NCBI GenBank assembly: GCA_003971905.1
Contig: RSEE01000160.1
Location: 1-64,000 of the forward strand
Length of the DNA stretch: 64,000 nucleotides
Direction of reading: 5' to 3'
Source: Moniliella sp. 'wahieum'
Taxonomy: Eukaryota
Of the stretch, positions 39,355 to 48,388 are shown one piece after another. The notes under the pieces were generated by a model that made no database searches, had not been told where the DNA came from, and saw nothing but the letters and a program-made list of their open reading frames with translations. The first letter of the stretch is position 1; each line of letters starts with the position of its first letter. The position numbers and the translations under genes were made by a program.

Positions 39355-41571
39355 TCAGGGGGCCAGGTCAGCCAGCATGGCATAGGGGTCGGTCTCGGTC
39401 TTAGTCTCGGTGCGAGACGCCTCGGGCTCAGGTTGGGCACGGGCCGAGGCCGAGGCAGGCGAAGCAGGTAAAGCAGCTCCGCGCGCGGGCGCGGGCGAGT
39501 CGGGGTCGGTCGATACCAACTCCATCGGGCTGCACGAGGAGTAGCTGAGACCGAGGTACGGTCTCGCCAGCTCCCACTCACGCTCCCGCTCCACTCCCGC
39601 TCCCGCTCCCACTCCCTCCACGGTTCCAGTTCCAGTTCCAGTTCCAGTTCCAGTTCCATTCGCAGCCGCGTTTCCTGTCGCCGTTGTGTGGTCGTTGAAA
39701 GCCGGGTCGCGCTCCTGCTCTCGAGCTTGGGTGGGACCTTGGAGTACAAGTGTGCGCCGGCGGACTTGCGAGCCACCTCGTCCAACGCGGGCGAGTCGGG
39801 AAGGCAGCGTGGGCGTGCGCCGCGATGAAGGTTTGAGGCGGGCGGTGGAAGATGGATCCGAGGGTGGCGGCATGGAGGGAGTTGGTCGAGCAGGGCGGGT
39901 CCATGCGGTCGGTTTCGGTGTTGATGGCTGGTTTGGGGGCTAGGACAACTTGTTTTGCCGCGCTTGGGTCGGTGGAGAGCATACGCCAGTACATGAATCC
40001 TCGGTCGCGTACGTCAGGGTTTTCCACTTGTTCCGTAGCTGCTTTGAGCAGCTTGGGTACCATTTCCGATGCCACTGCGGGCCGTTTGAGGAAGAGCTTG
40101 ACGGTGGCTGTGAGCAGGGCCAACTGAACCTCTGCCGGTTCGTCCAGGAAGCCAAACAAAAGTCCTCTAGCAACTCGTCTGCATTTTCAATCCGTTCCGC
40201 ATACTCGCCCAAGATCCAGATCATGGCTGCCTTGGCCTCCATTTGGTCGAGCAAGTCGAGGTGGGCACAGAGACGTGGGATGGCGCCCTCGTATTGGTTG
40301 GGATACTTTCGGAAATGTCCTTGAGCACCACCACGGCCTCTTGTACTACGTAGCTCACACCCGTCTCGACGAGCTGGAGCAGAGTGTGGACACAGGCATC
40401 GGCGCCTGCTGCGATCTTGATGGCCAATCGGCCAATGGACCTAACGGCCTTGCGAACAAAATCAATGTCCACCTCGGTAGCGTACTCATGCAGTTCCACG
40501 AGCACTTGACGAATGTTGGCCTCGGTGGTGAGGCGGTAGATGATTTCGAGCTTGGCCATCTTGACGTAAATCGGGTCATTGTATTTACAGAAAAAGATGC
40601 GCACCTCGTTGCGGAGGACGAGTGGGCGGCGTTGGATGATGAGAAGAATGTTGCGCAAGGCGACATACTGTACCTCGGGTCCGCGGTTCAGCAGGGTCAT
40701 GAGCGGCGGACTCATCTTGCGCGCCAGCGCCTCCTTGACCTCGAGGCCGGGCAATGTAATTCATCAGGTACAGCACCACCTTGGCTGCTGTCAGCACCAC
40801 GGCCGAGTTGGCCGAGCTGAGCCGGACCGCGACGCGTTCCGCCAAGATTTCCGCGTCGGCCACGTCGGTAGGCACAAAACAGCATCGACTCGAGGATGTA
40901 CACTTGGCCCCACTCGGACGTGTCGGGAGCGCCGAGACGAGTTTGGAGGCGACAGTGAGGTTGAGTTTGAGCTGGATGTTGTCGCTGCGCTCGGAGATCT
41001 CGGTAAGGGCGGCGACCGCATTGGCCACGACGGTTGCGTTGGAGTCGGCGAGCAGATCGCGCAGGCGCGCAATGAGGTGGTGCTTGTCGGCCAGCTTGCG
41101 GTCGGCCATGTACACCTTGGCCACGGCGACGGCGGCAGTCTTGCGCACGTAGGGGTCGGCGTCGCGGAGGGAGGTCTGGAGGGGGTCGATGAGCGCGTCG
41201 GTGATGACGGGGACCTGGATGGAGGACATGGTGCGGATGGCGAGGGCGCGGATGAGGGGGTTGCGGTCATGGCAGTCGCTGAGGAAGGCGGGCACGGCGG
41301 AGTGGGCGAGCTCGTGGCGCGGGCGGGCGTAGTTGATGAGGTAGAGGTAGACCATCTTCTTGATGTCGAGCACCTGGATGTTCATGCAGGCGACGACGGC
41401 GGCAAAGAGGGAGCTCATGTCGTTGCCCATGGTCATGTTGGCGACGATCTTCTTGAGCGCGGCCTTGCGGCGCGCCCAGGCCTTGTCCTTCTTGTCGTCG
41501 GTGAGCTCGGCCTTGAGGTCGGCGGCGCGCTCGCGGACGAAGAACTTGGCGTCGCGCGCGGACTCGGCCAT
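39355..41571 (-). CDS. APL1: AP-2 adaptor complex beta subunit (beta-adaptin)
   Basis: [63 protein letters not shown] and [15 protein letters not shown]. The C-terminus is short with no appendage domain. Confidence 0.92.
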
Positions 41572-41777: not shown

Positions 41778-44309
41778 ATGGCTGGAGCTGTGCTGCGTGC
41801 TGCCGCCGGCCGCATCCGCCGCCCGCCCGCCGCCCCGCCACGCGCGCCCTCGCCACCGCCGCCCCCCCGCCGCCTCTCCCGCCGCCGCCCCGCCCCCCTA
41901 CCCCGCCCTGCTCGCCAGCTCGAGCGCGTCCGCGCCATCCTCGGCCGGCCCTCACCCTGTCCGAGAAGATCCTCTATGCGCATGTCCGCGACCCCCGTCG
42001 CCGCCTTCGAGGGCGCCGGCCCCGACCCCCGCGCCGTCCGCGGCTCCCGCTACCTCCAGCTCATCATCGACCGCCTCGCCATGCAGGGTGCGTTCTCTCC
42101 CTCCCTCCTTCCCCGATCTGACTCCCCTCCTCCGCTCCTTGCCCGTACGACTCCCCCCCGCCCGCGCGCAGACGCCTCGGCCCAGATGGCCCTGCTCCAG
42201 TTCATGACGTGCGGCCTGGAGCGCGTCGCGATCCCCTCGTCGGTGCACTGCGACCACCTGATCCAGGCCTACCAGGGCGCCGACGCTGACCTGGCTCGTG
42301 CCCAGGAGACCAACGCCGAGGTGTTTGCCTTTCTGCGCTCGGCCTGCGCCAAGTACGGCATCGAATTCTGGCCGCCCGGATCGGGCATCATCCACCAGAT
42401 TGTCCTTGAGAACTATGCTGCGCCCGGCATGCTCATGCTCGGCACCGACAGCCACACGCCAACGCCTCGGGTCTCGGCGGCTTGGCCATCGGCGTTGGTG
42501 GTGCAGATGCAGTGGACGCCATGACGAATACCCCCTGGGAACTCATGGCGCCCAAGGTACTCAATGTGCACCTGACGGGCGAGCTGAGCCCGTGGTGCTC
42601 GCCCAAGGACGTCATTCTCACCCTGGCCGGCCTACTTACCGTGCGCGGCGGCACGGGCAAAATCCTCGAGTACACGGGGCCTGGGCTACTGAACATGCCC
42701 GCTACAGGTCTGGCAACCATGTCCAACATGGGTGCCGAGGTGGGCGCCACGACATCGGCGTTCCCCTACTCGGCCAAGATGGGCGAGTACCTGCGCGCGA
42801 CCGGCCGCGAGCACGTGGCCAGCCAAGCGGAGCAAGCTGCTGCCCAGGGCTACCTTTCCGCCGACCAAGATGCGCAGTACGACGACGAGGTGCACATTGA
42901 CCTGTCGAAGCTCGAGCCGACGCTCAACGGTCCTTTCACCCCGGACCTGTCCACTCCGCTCTCGCAATTTGTCGCGCGCGCCAAGGAGGACAGCCGGCCT
43001 CACCCGGTCGAGCTGACCGCCGCCCAGATTGGTTCGTGCACCAACAGCTCGTATGCTGATCTGGCGCGGTGCGCGTCGCTTGCGCGTCAGGCTACCGCGG
43101 CGGGCCTCAAGGCCAAGGTACCATTTGATGTGACTCCGGGCTCGAGCGTGTGCGCGCGACAATTGAGCGCGATGGTATCGAGGGGGACTTGACCGCGGCC
43201 GGTGCGCGTGTGCTGGCCAATGCATGTGGACCCTGCATTGGCCAGTGGAAGCGTACGGACCACCAGGGCGAGCAGAACGTGATCCTCACCTCGTTCAACC
43301 GTAACTTCAAAGGTCGTAACGACGGTAACGTCCAGACATGGAACATGCTTACTTCGCCCGAACTTGTTACCGCCATGGCGTTTGCCGGACGGGTGGATTT
43401 CAATCCGATGACCGACTCGCTTCCCACCCCGAGGGGAAGCAGTTCCGCTTCGCCCCGCCCGAGGGGGACGTGCTGCCGACCAAGGGTACGACCTGGGTGA
43501 CCAATCTCTGACTCCGGCTACCAACCCGGCGCCTCAGCCCGAAGTGGCGATTGCCATCTCGCCCGAATCGGAACGGCTCGAGGTACTGCAACCGTTCTCG
43601 TCGCCGTTTAAGAATGGGCAGTGGGAGTTACCGCCCATGCGTACTTTGCTGCGCATCCGCGGCAAGTGCACCACCGACCACATTTCCGCTGCCGGGCCTT
43701 GGCTCAAGTACAAGGGCCACCTGTCGAACTTGGCGGAGAACACGCTGATTGGCGCGTCGAACGACCAGACGGGCAACGTCAACTCGGCGGTGGACTACCT
43801 GACGGGCGAGGAGGCGACTATTCCGACAATTGCCAAGCGGTACCGCGACCGTGGCCAGGCATGGGTCTTGGTTGCGGACCACAACTACGGTGAAGGTTCA
43901 GCGCGGGAACACGCTGCGCTCCAACCGCGTTTCTTTGGGTGCAACCTGGTTGTGGCTCGGTCGATTGCTCGGATTGCAGAGACGAACCTGCGCAAGCAAG
44001 GTGTTCTCCACGCTCCTCTTTGCCAACGAGGACGATTACCTGAAGATTGGGCAGGGGGATCTGGTCGAGACGGTCAACCTCAAGGACCTGATTGACCCGG
44101 TGAAGGGTTTGCTCGATACCCAGGTGCGACTCAAGGTGACCAAGTTTACGCCCTCGGGCGAGGTGAAGGAAACGCTAGAGATTCCTACCAAGCACTCGCT
44201 CTCTGCCACCCACCTTGCCTGGATCCGTGCCGGTTCGGCGTTGAACTTGATCCGTGAGCAGGCGGAGGCCAAGAAGTCGGTTCCGCCTGCTGGTGCGGTG
44301 CCCGCGGGG
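41778..44309 (+). CDS. ACO2: Mitochondrial aconitase-family protein, Aco2/AcoB type (homocitrate dehydratase)
   Basis: [81 protein letters not shown] and AGSALN. DASAQ and GSAREH distinguish Aco2 from Aco1 (DATAQ/GSSREH). Intron ~42088-42171. No stop right after the domain (see findings). Confidence 0.93.
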
Positions 44310-44319
44310 CGCGCGGGCG

Positions 44320-45014
44320 ATGAGCACGTTTGCGCGTGCGATGGGTACGCGCGGCCTGCACACCACTTCGGCCGCGTACGCGTTCCGACACAAACGCGAG
44401 ACGCGGGTCAGTTCGCTGAACCCTTCTGACCCACGGTACGTGGCGCCCGGACGGATTCGCGGACGCAGAGCATTGTCGACCTTACCTTCCCGCTTGTGCC
44501 GAAGGAGAAGAACAACATTGCGCATGACCCGTATGCCAAGCGCTTGGCCGTCGCCGAGGAGAAGCTGCCCTATGGTCCCGAAGTGCACGTGACGATCGTG
44601 CGTGCCTACCTGCTCCACCAGAGCGTTGAGCGGGAGAAGCTGCAGGCGGACCTGCTGACCAAGTACCATGCTATGAAAGCGGCGTGCGATGACCTCAAGG
44701 CGTCCTTCCCGCTCTTGCACCAGGCTGCCGAGCAACGTACCCGGCCGAACAACCGCTCGCCCGAAGGTGGCCCGGTTGAAGCGGTACGGTCTGACGCCCG
44801 GTGCCCAGCTCATTCCCGAGTCGGAATGGACCGAGGAGACCAAGGCCAACGCCCACCGTCTGCGTCCGATCTGGTCGTCCCCCTCGGCACGAGTCAAGGT
44901 GGTGCAGCAGGGCGGCCGCCGTCTGTCGGTCTCTTCCCGCGCGAATGGCGCCTGCCCACCAAGACGCCTCGCCGCGAAGGCTGGCCGTCCTTCTCGGAGC
45001 CGGACCAGTTTTGA
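44320..45014 (+). CDS. MRPL28: Mitochondrial ribosomal protein mL40 (MRPL28-like), probably C-terminal part of an Aco2 fusion
   Basis: A presequence-like MSTFARAMGTRGLHTTSAAYA is followed by EVHVTIVRAYLLHQ...LLTKYHAMKAACDDL...A and GLFPREWRLPTKTP...W, which are MRP-L28/mL40 hallmarks. Three small indels are needed. Confidence 0.8.
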
Positions 45015-45359
45015 GATCAGACGCCGGGGAGTGGGCCCCGAAAAGAGACGGAATCGATCGATGCGCTCGTTATGTGGTGTGGGTGTGGGTGGAAGAGGGT
45101 GGAGGGCAGGTAGGTAGATGGATAGTGGATGGATGGATGGATGGATGGATGGAGGGTACACAGGCGGGAGGGTGCTTTGCTTTTAGGTAGGTTGTAGGTT
45201 GATCAGTGACAAGTGCAGCACGTGCTGATGAAGATGATTCATGCATCATGCACCATGCATCATCCATGGCGCAAGAACAAGAACGTCGGCCGGGCGAACC
45301 GACGAGCGCCAGCGTCCAACCCATCGCCATCGCCATCGCCAGCTGCGTGTGGGCCATCG

Positions 45360-46173
45360 ATGCTTGGGCGCGTGGGTCGTGTGGCGACTAGGTCAGCGGT
45401 ACAACTTGCGAGTGTATCTGGTGCACAACGGAGCATGAGCCGCAGTGCCTCGTTATCGCACGCGTTCGACACGGGCATCCACCTCGCGGCGCAAGTGCAG
45501 CTCGAAACGCCCGGGCTGAACGGGCAGGGACTGACGGGGCACTGTGTGCCGTGCACCGCTGGAGCGCCCGCGCTCGGCACCGAGGAGACCAGCACGTTGT
45601 TCCGTGAGCTCAACCATCTCAGTGCGGGGCTGGGCTACGGCACACAGCCGCCGCCCAAGACCAAGAGTGGGAAACTGTCCACGCGTCCGCGGACCGAGGC
45701 TGCATGGCGGATCCTGCACCGCGCCCAGGCCCAGGCGGACCCTACGGCAGCCTACTTTGACCCGCTTGCCCTGGCTACCGAGGGGGATGGCGCGACGTTC
45801 CCCTGCTCAGCAAACAGTATTACTTTAAGAACTACGTGGCGACCATTGCGTTTACCAATGCTCTCGCCGTCCTGGCCGAGGAGAATGGTCACCATCCGCA
45901 GCTCGTGGTCGAGTGGGGCCATGTGGGCGTGGCGTGGTGGACGCATGCGGTGGGCGGGGTACGTGACATTCCGGTGTTGCTGGGATTCGCCCAGAGGGTG
46001 TGAGAGAGTGAGAGAAGGCGGGGGGAGGGGAGGGGAGGCAAATGGAACAGAGGACTGAGTTTTACTGACCCTCTCTATCTAACCTCGATCTGGCGTAGCT
46101 GCATAAAAACGATTTCATCATGGCGGCCAAGACGGACCAACTGGGTCAACATGTGGAGGGCATTCGGCTTTGA
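45360..46173 (+). CDS. Pterin-4-alpha-carbinolamine dehydratase with N-terminal mitochondrial-presequence-like region
   Basis: HCVPC, YYFKNYVATIAFTNA, ENGHHPQLVVEWGHVGVAWWTHAVGG, an intron at 45959-46098, then LHKNDFIMAAKTD. Confidence 0.9.
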
Positions 46174-46308: not shown

Positions 46309-48388
46309 TCAGCGCGCCGGACCAGGAGCAGGGGGAGGAGAGGGCCGGTGGGCACGGTGCTCATGGCCTGGGACAGACGGAAAGCTTCGGCGACTGGACT
46401 GCTTCCGGGACCCAATCCGCCTCAAACGTCTCGCTCCTCCGCAGTTCGCGCGCCCCATGCCACTTGCCGCACTGCTGGCGCCGAGTGCGCGCGGACCGAC
46501 CAAGCGCTCGAGATCGCGCGCACTACTCGCCACACACTCCTCCAACGTCGTCCCTGGGTCCGAGGCGAACCGGATCAAAAGTCCCGGATCGACGCATGGT
46601 TCCGCACCGAGGCCGCCATGCCGGCAATCTGGTAAAGTCAGTACCACAAGTAACGAGAGCAGGCGCAAAAAGTGGGCTGGGGGAGGGGGGAAGGGGAGAA
46701 GGGGGAGGAGGAAGAGAAGAGGAAGAGGAAGAAGGAGAATCAACAACATACCCGTTCGTCGATCTCGGCAATTTCCCGCGACGCAATCGACTGGGCATCA
46801 AAGCCAGCATATACATCGTGTGCCCGACGGAGGTAGTCGAGGTTGTCCAGATCCATCTCAAGGTCGTAGGCATGTTCCGCCTCGTGCGCCGGCACATCGG
46901 TCCGGATCCAGTACTCGATCACCAAGGGGGGCACGGGCTGGAGGAGACGAATGATCATCTCGGGCAGATGATGGAAGGAGACTTTGGCCGTTTGAAACAG
47001 CTGCTGGAGCGCCTCGTCGCACTTGACCATTCTCCGATCTTGTTCGTCCAAGAGCTTGTGGTCGCGGATGTAGGCCCAAAGTGCTTCCATCACCTCGGTC
47101 CGCGTGCCCTGGCGCAGATCCAAAAGCTTGGCAAACGGCGGATGCAGAGCAAACTCTTCCCGATTCGAGGCGAGGTAGAGATGCACCTTGGCCTTGAGGG
47201 GTGCATCCCATTGCGCGTAATCTCAAACCCGTCCACGCCGGGCTGACCAAGCCCTCGGGCGTCTGCTCCCACTTGATCACATTGCCCCCGTCGTTGTACA
47301 GCGTCGCATCCCGCTCTAGCTCTACCACCACCATCTTGACCAGCTTGGAGAACTTGGGGGCTCCGCTTCGCTTACCCCTTCCTGCCCCTCCGGGGGGAGG
47401 AGACGGCCTTGGATCTTCAGCGTCCAAGAAGGCGCAGCGGGGGGCGGAGCCTGGTCTGGTTTTGACCCGGCGCCTCCCTCTGTGCTCAATCGGCTCTTGA
47501 GGTGCTGTGGGGGTTGGTCCTGGGGTTGCTCCTGGGGCTGGTCCTGAGGCGGCTCTTGAGGCTGATCTTGAGCCTGTTCCTGAGCCTGCTCCTGAACTTC
47601 CTCCTGCGGCTTGTTTTGAGTCTGCTCCTGCGCCTCTCTCTGATCCTTTTCTTGTGCCTGCTCTTGGGCCTGCTTTGGGCCCGCTCCTGCTCCTGCTCCT
47701 GCCTGCTCCTGCTCCGGCTCGCTCTGCTCCTTGCCCGATGGCTGAGGCTGAGGCTGAGGCTGAGGCTGGACCTGCCACGCCTGGCCAGCCACAGTGTTAG
47801 AGAGGAAAGACGAAGAGTGCGTCGTATATGCGGTGCCTGGCGCTGCTGCAAGCTCTGGAGCAGTTCAGCGCGTTTGCGCGCGACGGTCCAGTCGAGCTGG
47901 CGTTCAAGTGTACGCAGTTGAGCGTGCAGCTCACTTTCAGGCACGTATCCACGCACCTGCACGGCAACGACCGGTCACGTTGTCCGGCCCCGCGCTTGGC
48001 CACGCGCAACCCTTCGCCCATGAGACTTCGAGCGCACTGCGCTTGAGCACCTGCGCCGTACGCTGTTTCTGCTCCGCGGCCAGTTGCGCCGCCGCCGCCC
48101 GGTTGGCCGCCTCGGTTGCGGAGCTGGTGGGGCCACGGCGCGCGCCGGCTGGGCTTGGGCGTGGGATCGAGCCTGTGCCTGAGCCTGGGCTTGAGCTTGG
48201 GCTTGGCTTGAGCTGAGCTGGGCTTGAGCTTGAGCTTGGGTGGGCTTGGGCCTGGGCTGGATGGCCATGGCGCGTGGGCATGCTGTGCGTGGGCCTGGGC
48301 TTGGGCCTGGGCCTGGGCATGTGCCTGTGCTGTGCCTGCCTGCGGGCCTGGAGCTGGGCTGGTACTGCTGGGCCTGCATGGCGTTCAT
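46309..48388 (-). CDS. SNF12: SWI/SNF-RSC subunit SNF12/BAF60 (SWIB domain)
   Basis: VPESELHAQLRTLERQLDWTVARKR, WTLKIQGRLL, DGFEITR, EALWAYIRDHKLLD and CDEALQQLF. One intron ~46751-46632. The 3' end is approximate. Confidence 0.9.

Follow-up and report, generated by a model that had tools for sequence, protein, structure and literature searches.

A small class of mitochondrial proteins is made as tandem precursors, in which two complete mitochondrial proteins stand in series and are joined by an internal presequence-like linker carrying motifs, sometimes two, for the mitochondrial processing peptidase (MPP). Yeast Atp25, which consists of an Rsf and an M domain, contains an internal targeting signal that is excised at two MPP sites (PMC5063612), and yeast Arg5,6 is cut by MPP at an internal presequence-like stretch (PMC8734313). 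Other examples include Rsm22-Cox11 of Schizosaccharomyces pombe and RPS14 of rice (PMC5063612, PMC8734313), and most described tandem precursors combine a mitoribosomal protein with a functionally unrelated partner (PMC5063612). A comparable architecture is the S. pombe fusion of the aconitase paralogue Aco2 to the mitoribosomal protein bL21 (Aco2-L21 or Aco2-Mrpl49), which occurs in Schizosaccharomyces only and yields an Aco2-only mRNA by internal polyadenylation (bioRxiv 10.1101/2019.12.16.879015; the fusion is also cited in PMC8258696 and PMC11431987). Here, we describe a gene in which Aco2 appears to be fused to a different mitoribosomal protein, mL40 (MrpL28). It lies at 41778..45014 of a 64,000-nucleotide stretch of Moniliella sp. 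'wahieum' DNA (the window, i.e. the whole stretch analysed: positions 1 to 64,000 of the forward strand of contig RSEE01000160.1, assembly GCA_003971905.1), and we consider it probable that its product is an MPP-cleaved tandem mitochondrial precursor of Aco2 and mL40, encoded by one gene.

As written in the window, this basidiomycete-type gene runs on the + strand from ATG 41778 to a TGA ending at 45014. The aconitase motif AGSALNLI (44229-44252) is in the aconitase frame, which then continues to a TGA at 44427-44429 through a tail without any Pfam match, while the +1 frame, open from 44251 onwards, leads via an Arg/Ser/Thr-rich, acid-free stretch into mL40. The original prediction had called the tail at 44429 implausible and had proposed that, once an indel is allowed, there is no stop between AGSALNLI and mL40. 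The observation is confirmed, and the closest relative (P0003) reads through this region in one frame. Two complete proteins thus share a single frame in relatives, and do so in the window when one frameshift is allowed.

When long relatives were sought for the mL40 piece, one protein of 2120 candidates emerged: P0001, whose single open reading frame (ORF) of 944 aa has aconitase domains. Its cluster has five members, of which four (944-950 aa) run from Aco2 through the linker into mL40 in one frame, and the fifth is the mL40 part alone, beginning at the linker Met. A HMMER search of 50%-identity representatives gave 23 matches, including one full fusion of 1064 aa and three fragments whose aconitase end continues into mL40. 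A profile search limited to proteins of at least 740 aa gave 56 records; 55 of these, together with P0029 and P0034, form the set of 57 long homologues used below (27 of them species-named), from which P0106 (766 aa), terminating just inside mL40, was excluded. All 57 carry the mL40 tail, as scored with a hidden Markov model (HMM) built from 12 aconitase-free records (E 1e-18 or better), a count that does not support the claim that every species is fused, because the profile was mL40-weighted and the searches could return fused forms only. The named fused genera are Ustilago, Moesziomyces, Testicularia, Thecaphora, Violaceomyces, Tilletia, Tilletiaria, Tilletiopsis, Exobasidium, Acaromyces, Jaminaea, Ceraceosorus and Malassezia, which cover three classes of Ustilaginomycotina (Ustilaginomycetes, Exobasidiomycetes and that of Malassezia, by a taxonomy look-up for one species per class). 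Whether Ustilaginomycotina orthologues share the architecture had been posed as a check; its reach is wider than proposed. The Ustilago maydis protein (XP_011389243.1, 1048 aa) was separately confirmed to be fused, and 62 of 76 further cluster members extend to the aconitase end, all 62 with the tail, these 76 being 90%-identity neighbours and not independent cases. One 1039-aa member of the Ustilago cluster (P0114) is labelled Cichorium endivia, probably as a result of fungal contamination of a plant assembly.

Several records that looked like separate mL40 proteins of these fungi were set aside. P0009, a candidate stand-alone smut mL40, barely differs from the tail of the Moesziomyces fusion, and an aconitase fragment that matches it (P0151) exists; P0032 and P0033 are the tail of the Tilletiopsis fusion. 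Outside the subphylum, the Rhodotorula mL40 records (P0040, P0043) are stand-alone. A metagenome locus scan gave five Rhodotorula-like loci (L001-L005) from 76 pattern matches, all of them mL40; no aconitase match was found in their available flanks, and the two loci that were translated have their own presequence. None of the five is a close relative of the window, and hence they give no view of the indel at the DNA level. A quick mL40 tree placed the fused-type mL40s in one group (SH-aLRT, the Shimodaira-Hasegawa-like approximate likelihood ratio test, 94, with a long-branch warning), and a single origin of the fusion is likely. In a tree of fused members only, the window aconitase clusters with P0001 and P0106 (support 100), apart from all named genera.

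The larger part of the gene encodes the enzyme, which continues after the first exon at 42172..44262. Pfam Aconitase (PF00330) is matched by three ORF pieces within 42174-43497 and Aconitase_C (PF00694) at 43412-44092, the window pieces scoring above cut-off. P0003 passes the TIGR01340 mitochondrial aconitase model (1003 bits, cut-off 825), and the fused enzyme fails the TIGR00139 homoaconitase model (153 bits, cut-off 530). Since the alignment with pig aconitase reaches within three residues of the end of the pig protein and the fold is the same (TM 0.92 by target length in Foldseek), the whole aconitase lies upstream of the linker. All five motif checks, on the cluster cysteines and on the Ser, His and Asp-His motifs, are passed by 55 of the 57 records; each of the two exceptions has a single variant. 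In the window (WLKYKGH, near 43700-43720) and in 57/57 records, the residue equivalent to yeast Aco2p K610 is Lys, in contrast to the Arg of pig aconitase. This Lys, which replaces an Arg found in citric-acid-cycle aconitases, is the single diagnostic given for the Aco2p/AcoB subclade (PMC3556520), and together with the TIGR01340 score it upholds the Aco2 identity proposed earlier. The fused members thus resemble the fungal Aco2p/AcoB subclade in their active-site Lys and intact motifs and differ from it by a C-terminal extension of about 200-310 residues. In this subclade yeast Aco2p acts on homoaconitate, and Aspergillus AcoB is inactive and dispensable (PMC3556520); a lysine-pathway role for the fused Aco2 is therefore a possibility and not assured.

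The C-terminal part (44380..45014, with TGA 45012-45014) is assigned to mL40. The original prediction had expected a match to the MRP-L28 HMM (PF09812), and there is one on 44430-45011 (E 0.003), which at 18.2 bits for a frameshifted piece falls under the cut-off of 28.4. The intact close relative P0004 also stays under it (25.7 bits), and fused relatives P0007, P0008, P0011 and P0012 exceed it (30-43 bits). Because the MRP-L28 match is weak, the identity rests on profile-profile comparison, in which the window piece matches a profile of 21 mL40-like proteins with a probability of 99.9 (E 3e-33). When the mL40-family profile was compared with the PDB, all nine matches at E up to 1 were mL40 chains, the best being yeast mL40 (E 3e-14), so that the proposed identity stands. 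Best scores of 0.80-0.81 to MRP-L28 clusters were obtained for the Tilletiopsis tail in the ESM Atlas and serve as a lead only. Fused and stand-alone mL40/MrpL28 (PF09812; PDB 5mrc_2, 3j6b_2, 6ywe_2; P0040, P0043; L001-L005) have in common the long central helix H-x-T-I-x-R-A-W and the C-terminal motif F-P-x-E-x-R-x-P-T, whereas most fused members lack a start of their own for mL40 and have a longer insertion between the two motifs. Scores near or under the Pfam cut-off probably explain why the fused proteins are annotated as aconitase or hypothetical alone: all three domains are listed in 14 of 56 precomputed Pfam entries, and the named records are labelled only aconitase, homoaconitase, homocitrate dehydratase or hypothetical. 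Public records thus already imply the architecture without any of them naming a fusion. One stand-alone entry is itself unusual: PDB chain 6ywe_2, which we take to be the mL40 chain of the Neurospora mitoribosome, is 370 aa long, compared with 147 aa in yeast; the mL40 match covers 280-320, and the long N-terminal part may be another fused partner.

The frameshift that hides the fusion in the window is one of many. In a frameshift-aware alignment with P0003, 823 of 934 aligned residues are identical (632/692 in the aconitase, 161/204 in the mL40 tail) and nine one-base frameshifts are needed, at about 42462, 43142, 43426, 43479, 44006, 44298, 44449, 44766 and 44926. Five of these fall in the aconitase, one in the linker and three in mL40, and no internal stop codons are required. 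Contigs from two public runs have indels at or near four of the nine (42458, 44009, 44764 and 44926). At three of these four they are near-identical to the window (5 differences in 239, 6 in 287 and 4 in 213), and the piece at 44009 is divergent (19 differences in about 116). We consider an assembly error the most likely cause of the junction frameshift as well. The original prediction had placed the indel in the GGGG run at 44306-44309. A one-base frameshift is indeed present at the junction, and its site is likely further upstream: P0003 and P0106 keep P-R/K-G-A-R there, both alignments set the extra base at ~44298-44303, and GGGG as the certain site of the error is thereby ruled out. A break 5-10 bases upstream of GGGG is more likely; as the Tilletiopsis junction reads P-A-G-A-R, the extra base is not pinned to one run and may belong to either CCC or GGGG (44298..44309).

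If the frameshift were instead real in Moniliella, Aco2 and mL40 would have been re-separated into overlapping genes, or this copy would be a pseudogene. The sequence as written says so, the junction lies outside the independent contig coverage, and two records might reflect a split in sister species, namely the short P0106 and P0006, a close relative with mL40 behind a different N-terminus and no aconitase in the record. These junction differences may be due to intronic sequence, to the end of a contig or to a genuine separation; the N-terminus of P0006 shares the word AELT with the retained-intron insert of P0036 and may be intron read-through. Eight other frameshifts in the same 88%-identical gene, the public-contig indels, the fused closest relative and a neighbouring beta-adaptin gene that is also split across frames as written make a real split highly improbable.

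Between the two proteins lies a linker (44263..44379), in which an Ala/Pro/Gly spacer is followed by an Arg/Ser/Thr-rich stretch. As proposed earlier, it is presequence-like and free of acidic residues: in the +1 frame, 44302-44376 encodes no D/E and four R. In the 57 records linker length ranges from 18 to 81 residues (median 50), with D/E at 1.2% against 12.3% in the enzyme, R/K at 11% and S/T at 26%. In the AlphaFold2 model of the Tilletiopsis protein, the pLDDT (predicted local distance difference test) of residues 814-846, equivalent to the linker, is below 50, and the linker is accordingly predicted to be disordered. Two MPP-like motifs are seen in the window, R-A-M-S-T at 44314..44328, containing an in-frame ATG at 44320, and R-G-L-H-T... 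at 44350..44379, which aligns with R-R-G-Y-A-T of the family. A broader motif, defined after the sequences had been seen, is found in 53/57 linkers (2.3 expected), with two or more copies in 15/57. The fairer test uses a fixed 70-residue window and compares it with shuffles and with the enzyme body. Here the generic R-3 motif, a pattern from general knowledge of MPP, occurs in 54/57 (8.7 shuffled, 8.6 enzyme body). The published Atp25/MPP consensus (PMC5063612) occurs in 16/57 (0.8 shuffled, 0.0 enzyme body). For R-10 the count is 15/57 (7.0 shuffled, 6.2 enzyme body), which rules it out as the signal of the family; RGLHTTSAAY, earlier read as an R-10 MPP/Oct1 motif, does fit that pattern in this lineage and is not the conserved form, which is R-3 in most relatives. 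Since five of nine stand-alone mL40 N-termini checked carry the same kind of motif, the linker is suggested to be the old mL40 presequence.

How conserved the motif is bears on whether the fusion is cut. It might stay whole, fully or partly, so that mL40 tethers Aco2 to the mitoribosome, where Aco2 would act as a sensor of iron-sulfur or metabolites, the motif being a relic or used conditionally. Two independent fusions of Aco2 to large-subunit proteins would fit such a tether, as would a flexible linker of this length, and bioRxiv 10.1101/2019.12.16.879015 asserts, in a sentence without citation, that unfused yeast Aco2 directly interacts with the mitoribosome. In addition, Neurospora mL40 is described in the central protuberance, where it helps to form an NAD (nicotinamide adenine dinucleotide) pocket (PMC7560712). 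A relic, however, would not hold the motif column at 56% conservation over three classes, against 19% for the spacer before it, nor show a second motif in 15/57 records, and the comparable linkers of Atp25 and Arg5,6 are cut; we give the tether little chance.

Alternatively, one gene might give rise to Aco2-only and mL40-only products through internal polyadenylation or an internal start, with proteolysis playing a minor part. This follows the S. pombe precedent, and in the window ATG 44320 begins a complete-looking presequence in an mL40 frame that is open well upstream of it. As 34 of the 57 linkers, including that of U. maydis, have no Met, an internal AUG is not a general source of mL40. 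No AATAAA, ATTAAA or TATA was found in 44150-44500 (linker DNA being 27% A+T), which is weak evidence because fungal signals are degenerate. We regard alternative transcripts as a rather unlikely main route.

An MPP-cleaved tandem precursor remains the preferred reading, and it draws on the single frame of the relatives, the identity of both domains, the composition of the linker and the conserved, enriched motif. One 84-nt intron would be spliced, giving a precursor of ~1050 aa that consists of a presequence, an Aco2-type aconitase, a presequence-like linker and mL40. After import via the N-terminal signal, MPP would remove this signal and cut the linker at the conserved R-x-(Y/F/L/M), with two sites in some lineages, and trimming by Icp55 or Oct1 may follow. 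Cleavage in the matrix is proposed because Atp25 and Arg5,6 are cut by MPP at such internal stretches. The products would be an Aco2 of about 88-91 kDa and an mL40 of about 21 kDa (arithmetic for U. maydis gives 90.9 kDa including the presequence and 21.2 kDa), and the freed mL40 would take its place in the large subunit, at the central protuberance. Both proteins would then be supplied by a single promoter and a single import event. The arrangement most likely arose once, early in Ustilaginomycotina, when Aco2 would have lost its stop and been placed in the reading frame of an mL40 gene whose presequence was retained.

A number of points weigh against this reading, in addition to the P0006 record and the late definition of the broader motif. 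Contig coverage stops short of 44157-44507, so that the junction is not among the re-read regions. The homologue searches returned only fused forms, and 57/57 says nothing on unfused Aco2 copies. The strict published MPP consensus fits only the 16 records given above. The linker of the window lineage has two in-frame Mets, 20/57 records have a Met at least six residues before the last motif, and an internal start is possible in lineages with a linker Met. Cleavage, a single transcript and the release of two proteins are themselves deduced from sequence. Finally, S. pombe Aco2-bL21, as the nearest precedent, relies on internal polyadenylation, and bioRxiv 10.1101/2019.12.16.879015 describes no MPP cleavage for it.

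The fission yeast fusion, reportedly first studied by Jung et al. 2015, shares with Aco2-mL40 an N-terminal Aco2 paralogue, a fast-evolving linker and a C-terminal large-subunit mitoribosomal protein. It differs in its partner, as bL21 is unrelated to mL40, and in its range, being confined to Schizosaccharomyces whereas Aco2-mL40 covers three classes. Internal polyadenylation is used there; the Aco2-mL40 linker instead shows an MPP-type motif that is conserved, and the interval searched contained no canonical poly(A) signal. When tested against bL21 (Ribosomal_L21p), the tail matched only MRP-L28/mL40. Because the partners are unrelated, the two fusions are independent, as had been predicted: they are analogous and stem from separate events. 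With Atp25, Arg5,6 and Rsm22-Cox11, the gene shares the serial arrangement, the presequence-like linker and the MPP motifs. A mitoribosomal partner is also common there, which is N-terminal in Atp25 and Rsm22-Cox11 and C-terminal in Aco2-mL40; the latter adds a new protein pair, with a cleavage that is so far a sequence-based prediction.

The remaining features of the locus concern the 5′ end of the gene and its neighbours. A predicted N-terminal mitochondrial presequence of Aco2 follows the start codon (41778..41860, end approximate); it is Arg/Ala-rich and broken by frameshifts as written, and its assignment is tentative because the records of the closest relatives begin in exon 2. Exon 1 (41778..42087), comprising the presequence and the start of aconitase domain 1, has TLSEKILY and DRLAMQ in different frames and was delimited with aligned relatives. 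It is followed by a predicted 84-nt GT-AG intron with a CTGAC branch-like site (42088..42171) between AMQ and DASAQ, which are contiguous in relatives; P0029 has a read-through insert at the same place, and a divergent public contig is a net 84 bases shorter at this position (95 bases skipped and 11 inserted). On the - strand, the beta-adaptin gene (Adaptin_N, 39581-41571) lies head-to-head with the Aco2-mL40 gene, the two ATGs being ~206 bases apart, which suggests a shared bidirectional promoter. Just 3′ of the mL40 stop there is a short GGAT tandem repeat (45118-45152), followed by a + strand gene at 45210-46058 with a pterin-4a-carbinolamine dehydratase piece (PF01329, 45761-46000). The long N-terminal region before this piece has no Pfam match and opens with a presequence-like stretch; the gene could encode another composite mitochondrial protein. 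Further on, part of a SWIB-domain gene (PF02201) is found on the - strand at 46743-47222, and the ORF pieces beside it resemble a SWI/SNF or RSC subunit.

The Aco2-mL40 fusion is real and conserved, and it is apparently undescribed. No description of it was found in literature titles and abstracts, a search for which subscription papers were mostly outside reach; the survey of fungal gene fusions by Leonard and Richards (2012) and its supplements may list the pair. That Aco2 has become a carrier twice is suggestive, but no proof, of a specific functional link to the mitoribosome. In many tandem precursors the mitoribosomal protein has a partner of unrelated function (PMC5063612); a literature search on Puf3/ACO2 co-regulation found nothing. 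More speculatively, Aco2 might have been recruited in both fission yeasts and smut fungi through an unrecognised role at the mitoribosome, the MPP cut might be regulated and tie central-protuberance assembly to Aco2 folding or iron-sulfur supply, and carrier-plus-ribosomal-protein precursors might even be lineage-wide in Ustilaginomycotina, a scenario we think unlikely.

The fusion would be a widely conserved natural addition to the small class of mitochondrial two-in-one precursors, and the second case in which Aco2, a poorly understood enzyme, has independently been joined to a mitoribosomal protein. Why ribosomal proteins are so frequent in these precursors is a question left open in PMC5063612, and Aco2-mL40 makes it approachable in genetically tractable smut yeasts. 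It also corrects the annotation of these fungi, in which mL40 is hidden in records named only for an aconitase-type enzyme or as hypothetical. Deletion of 'aco2' would remove a mitoribosomal protein too, and would thereby mislead metabolic studies.

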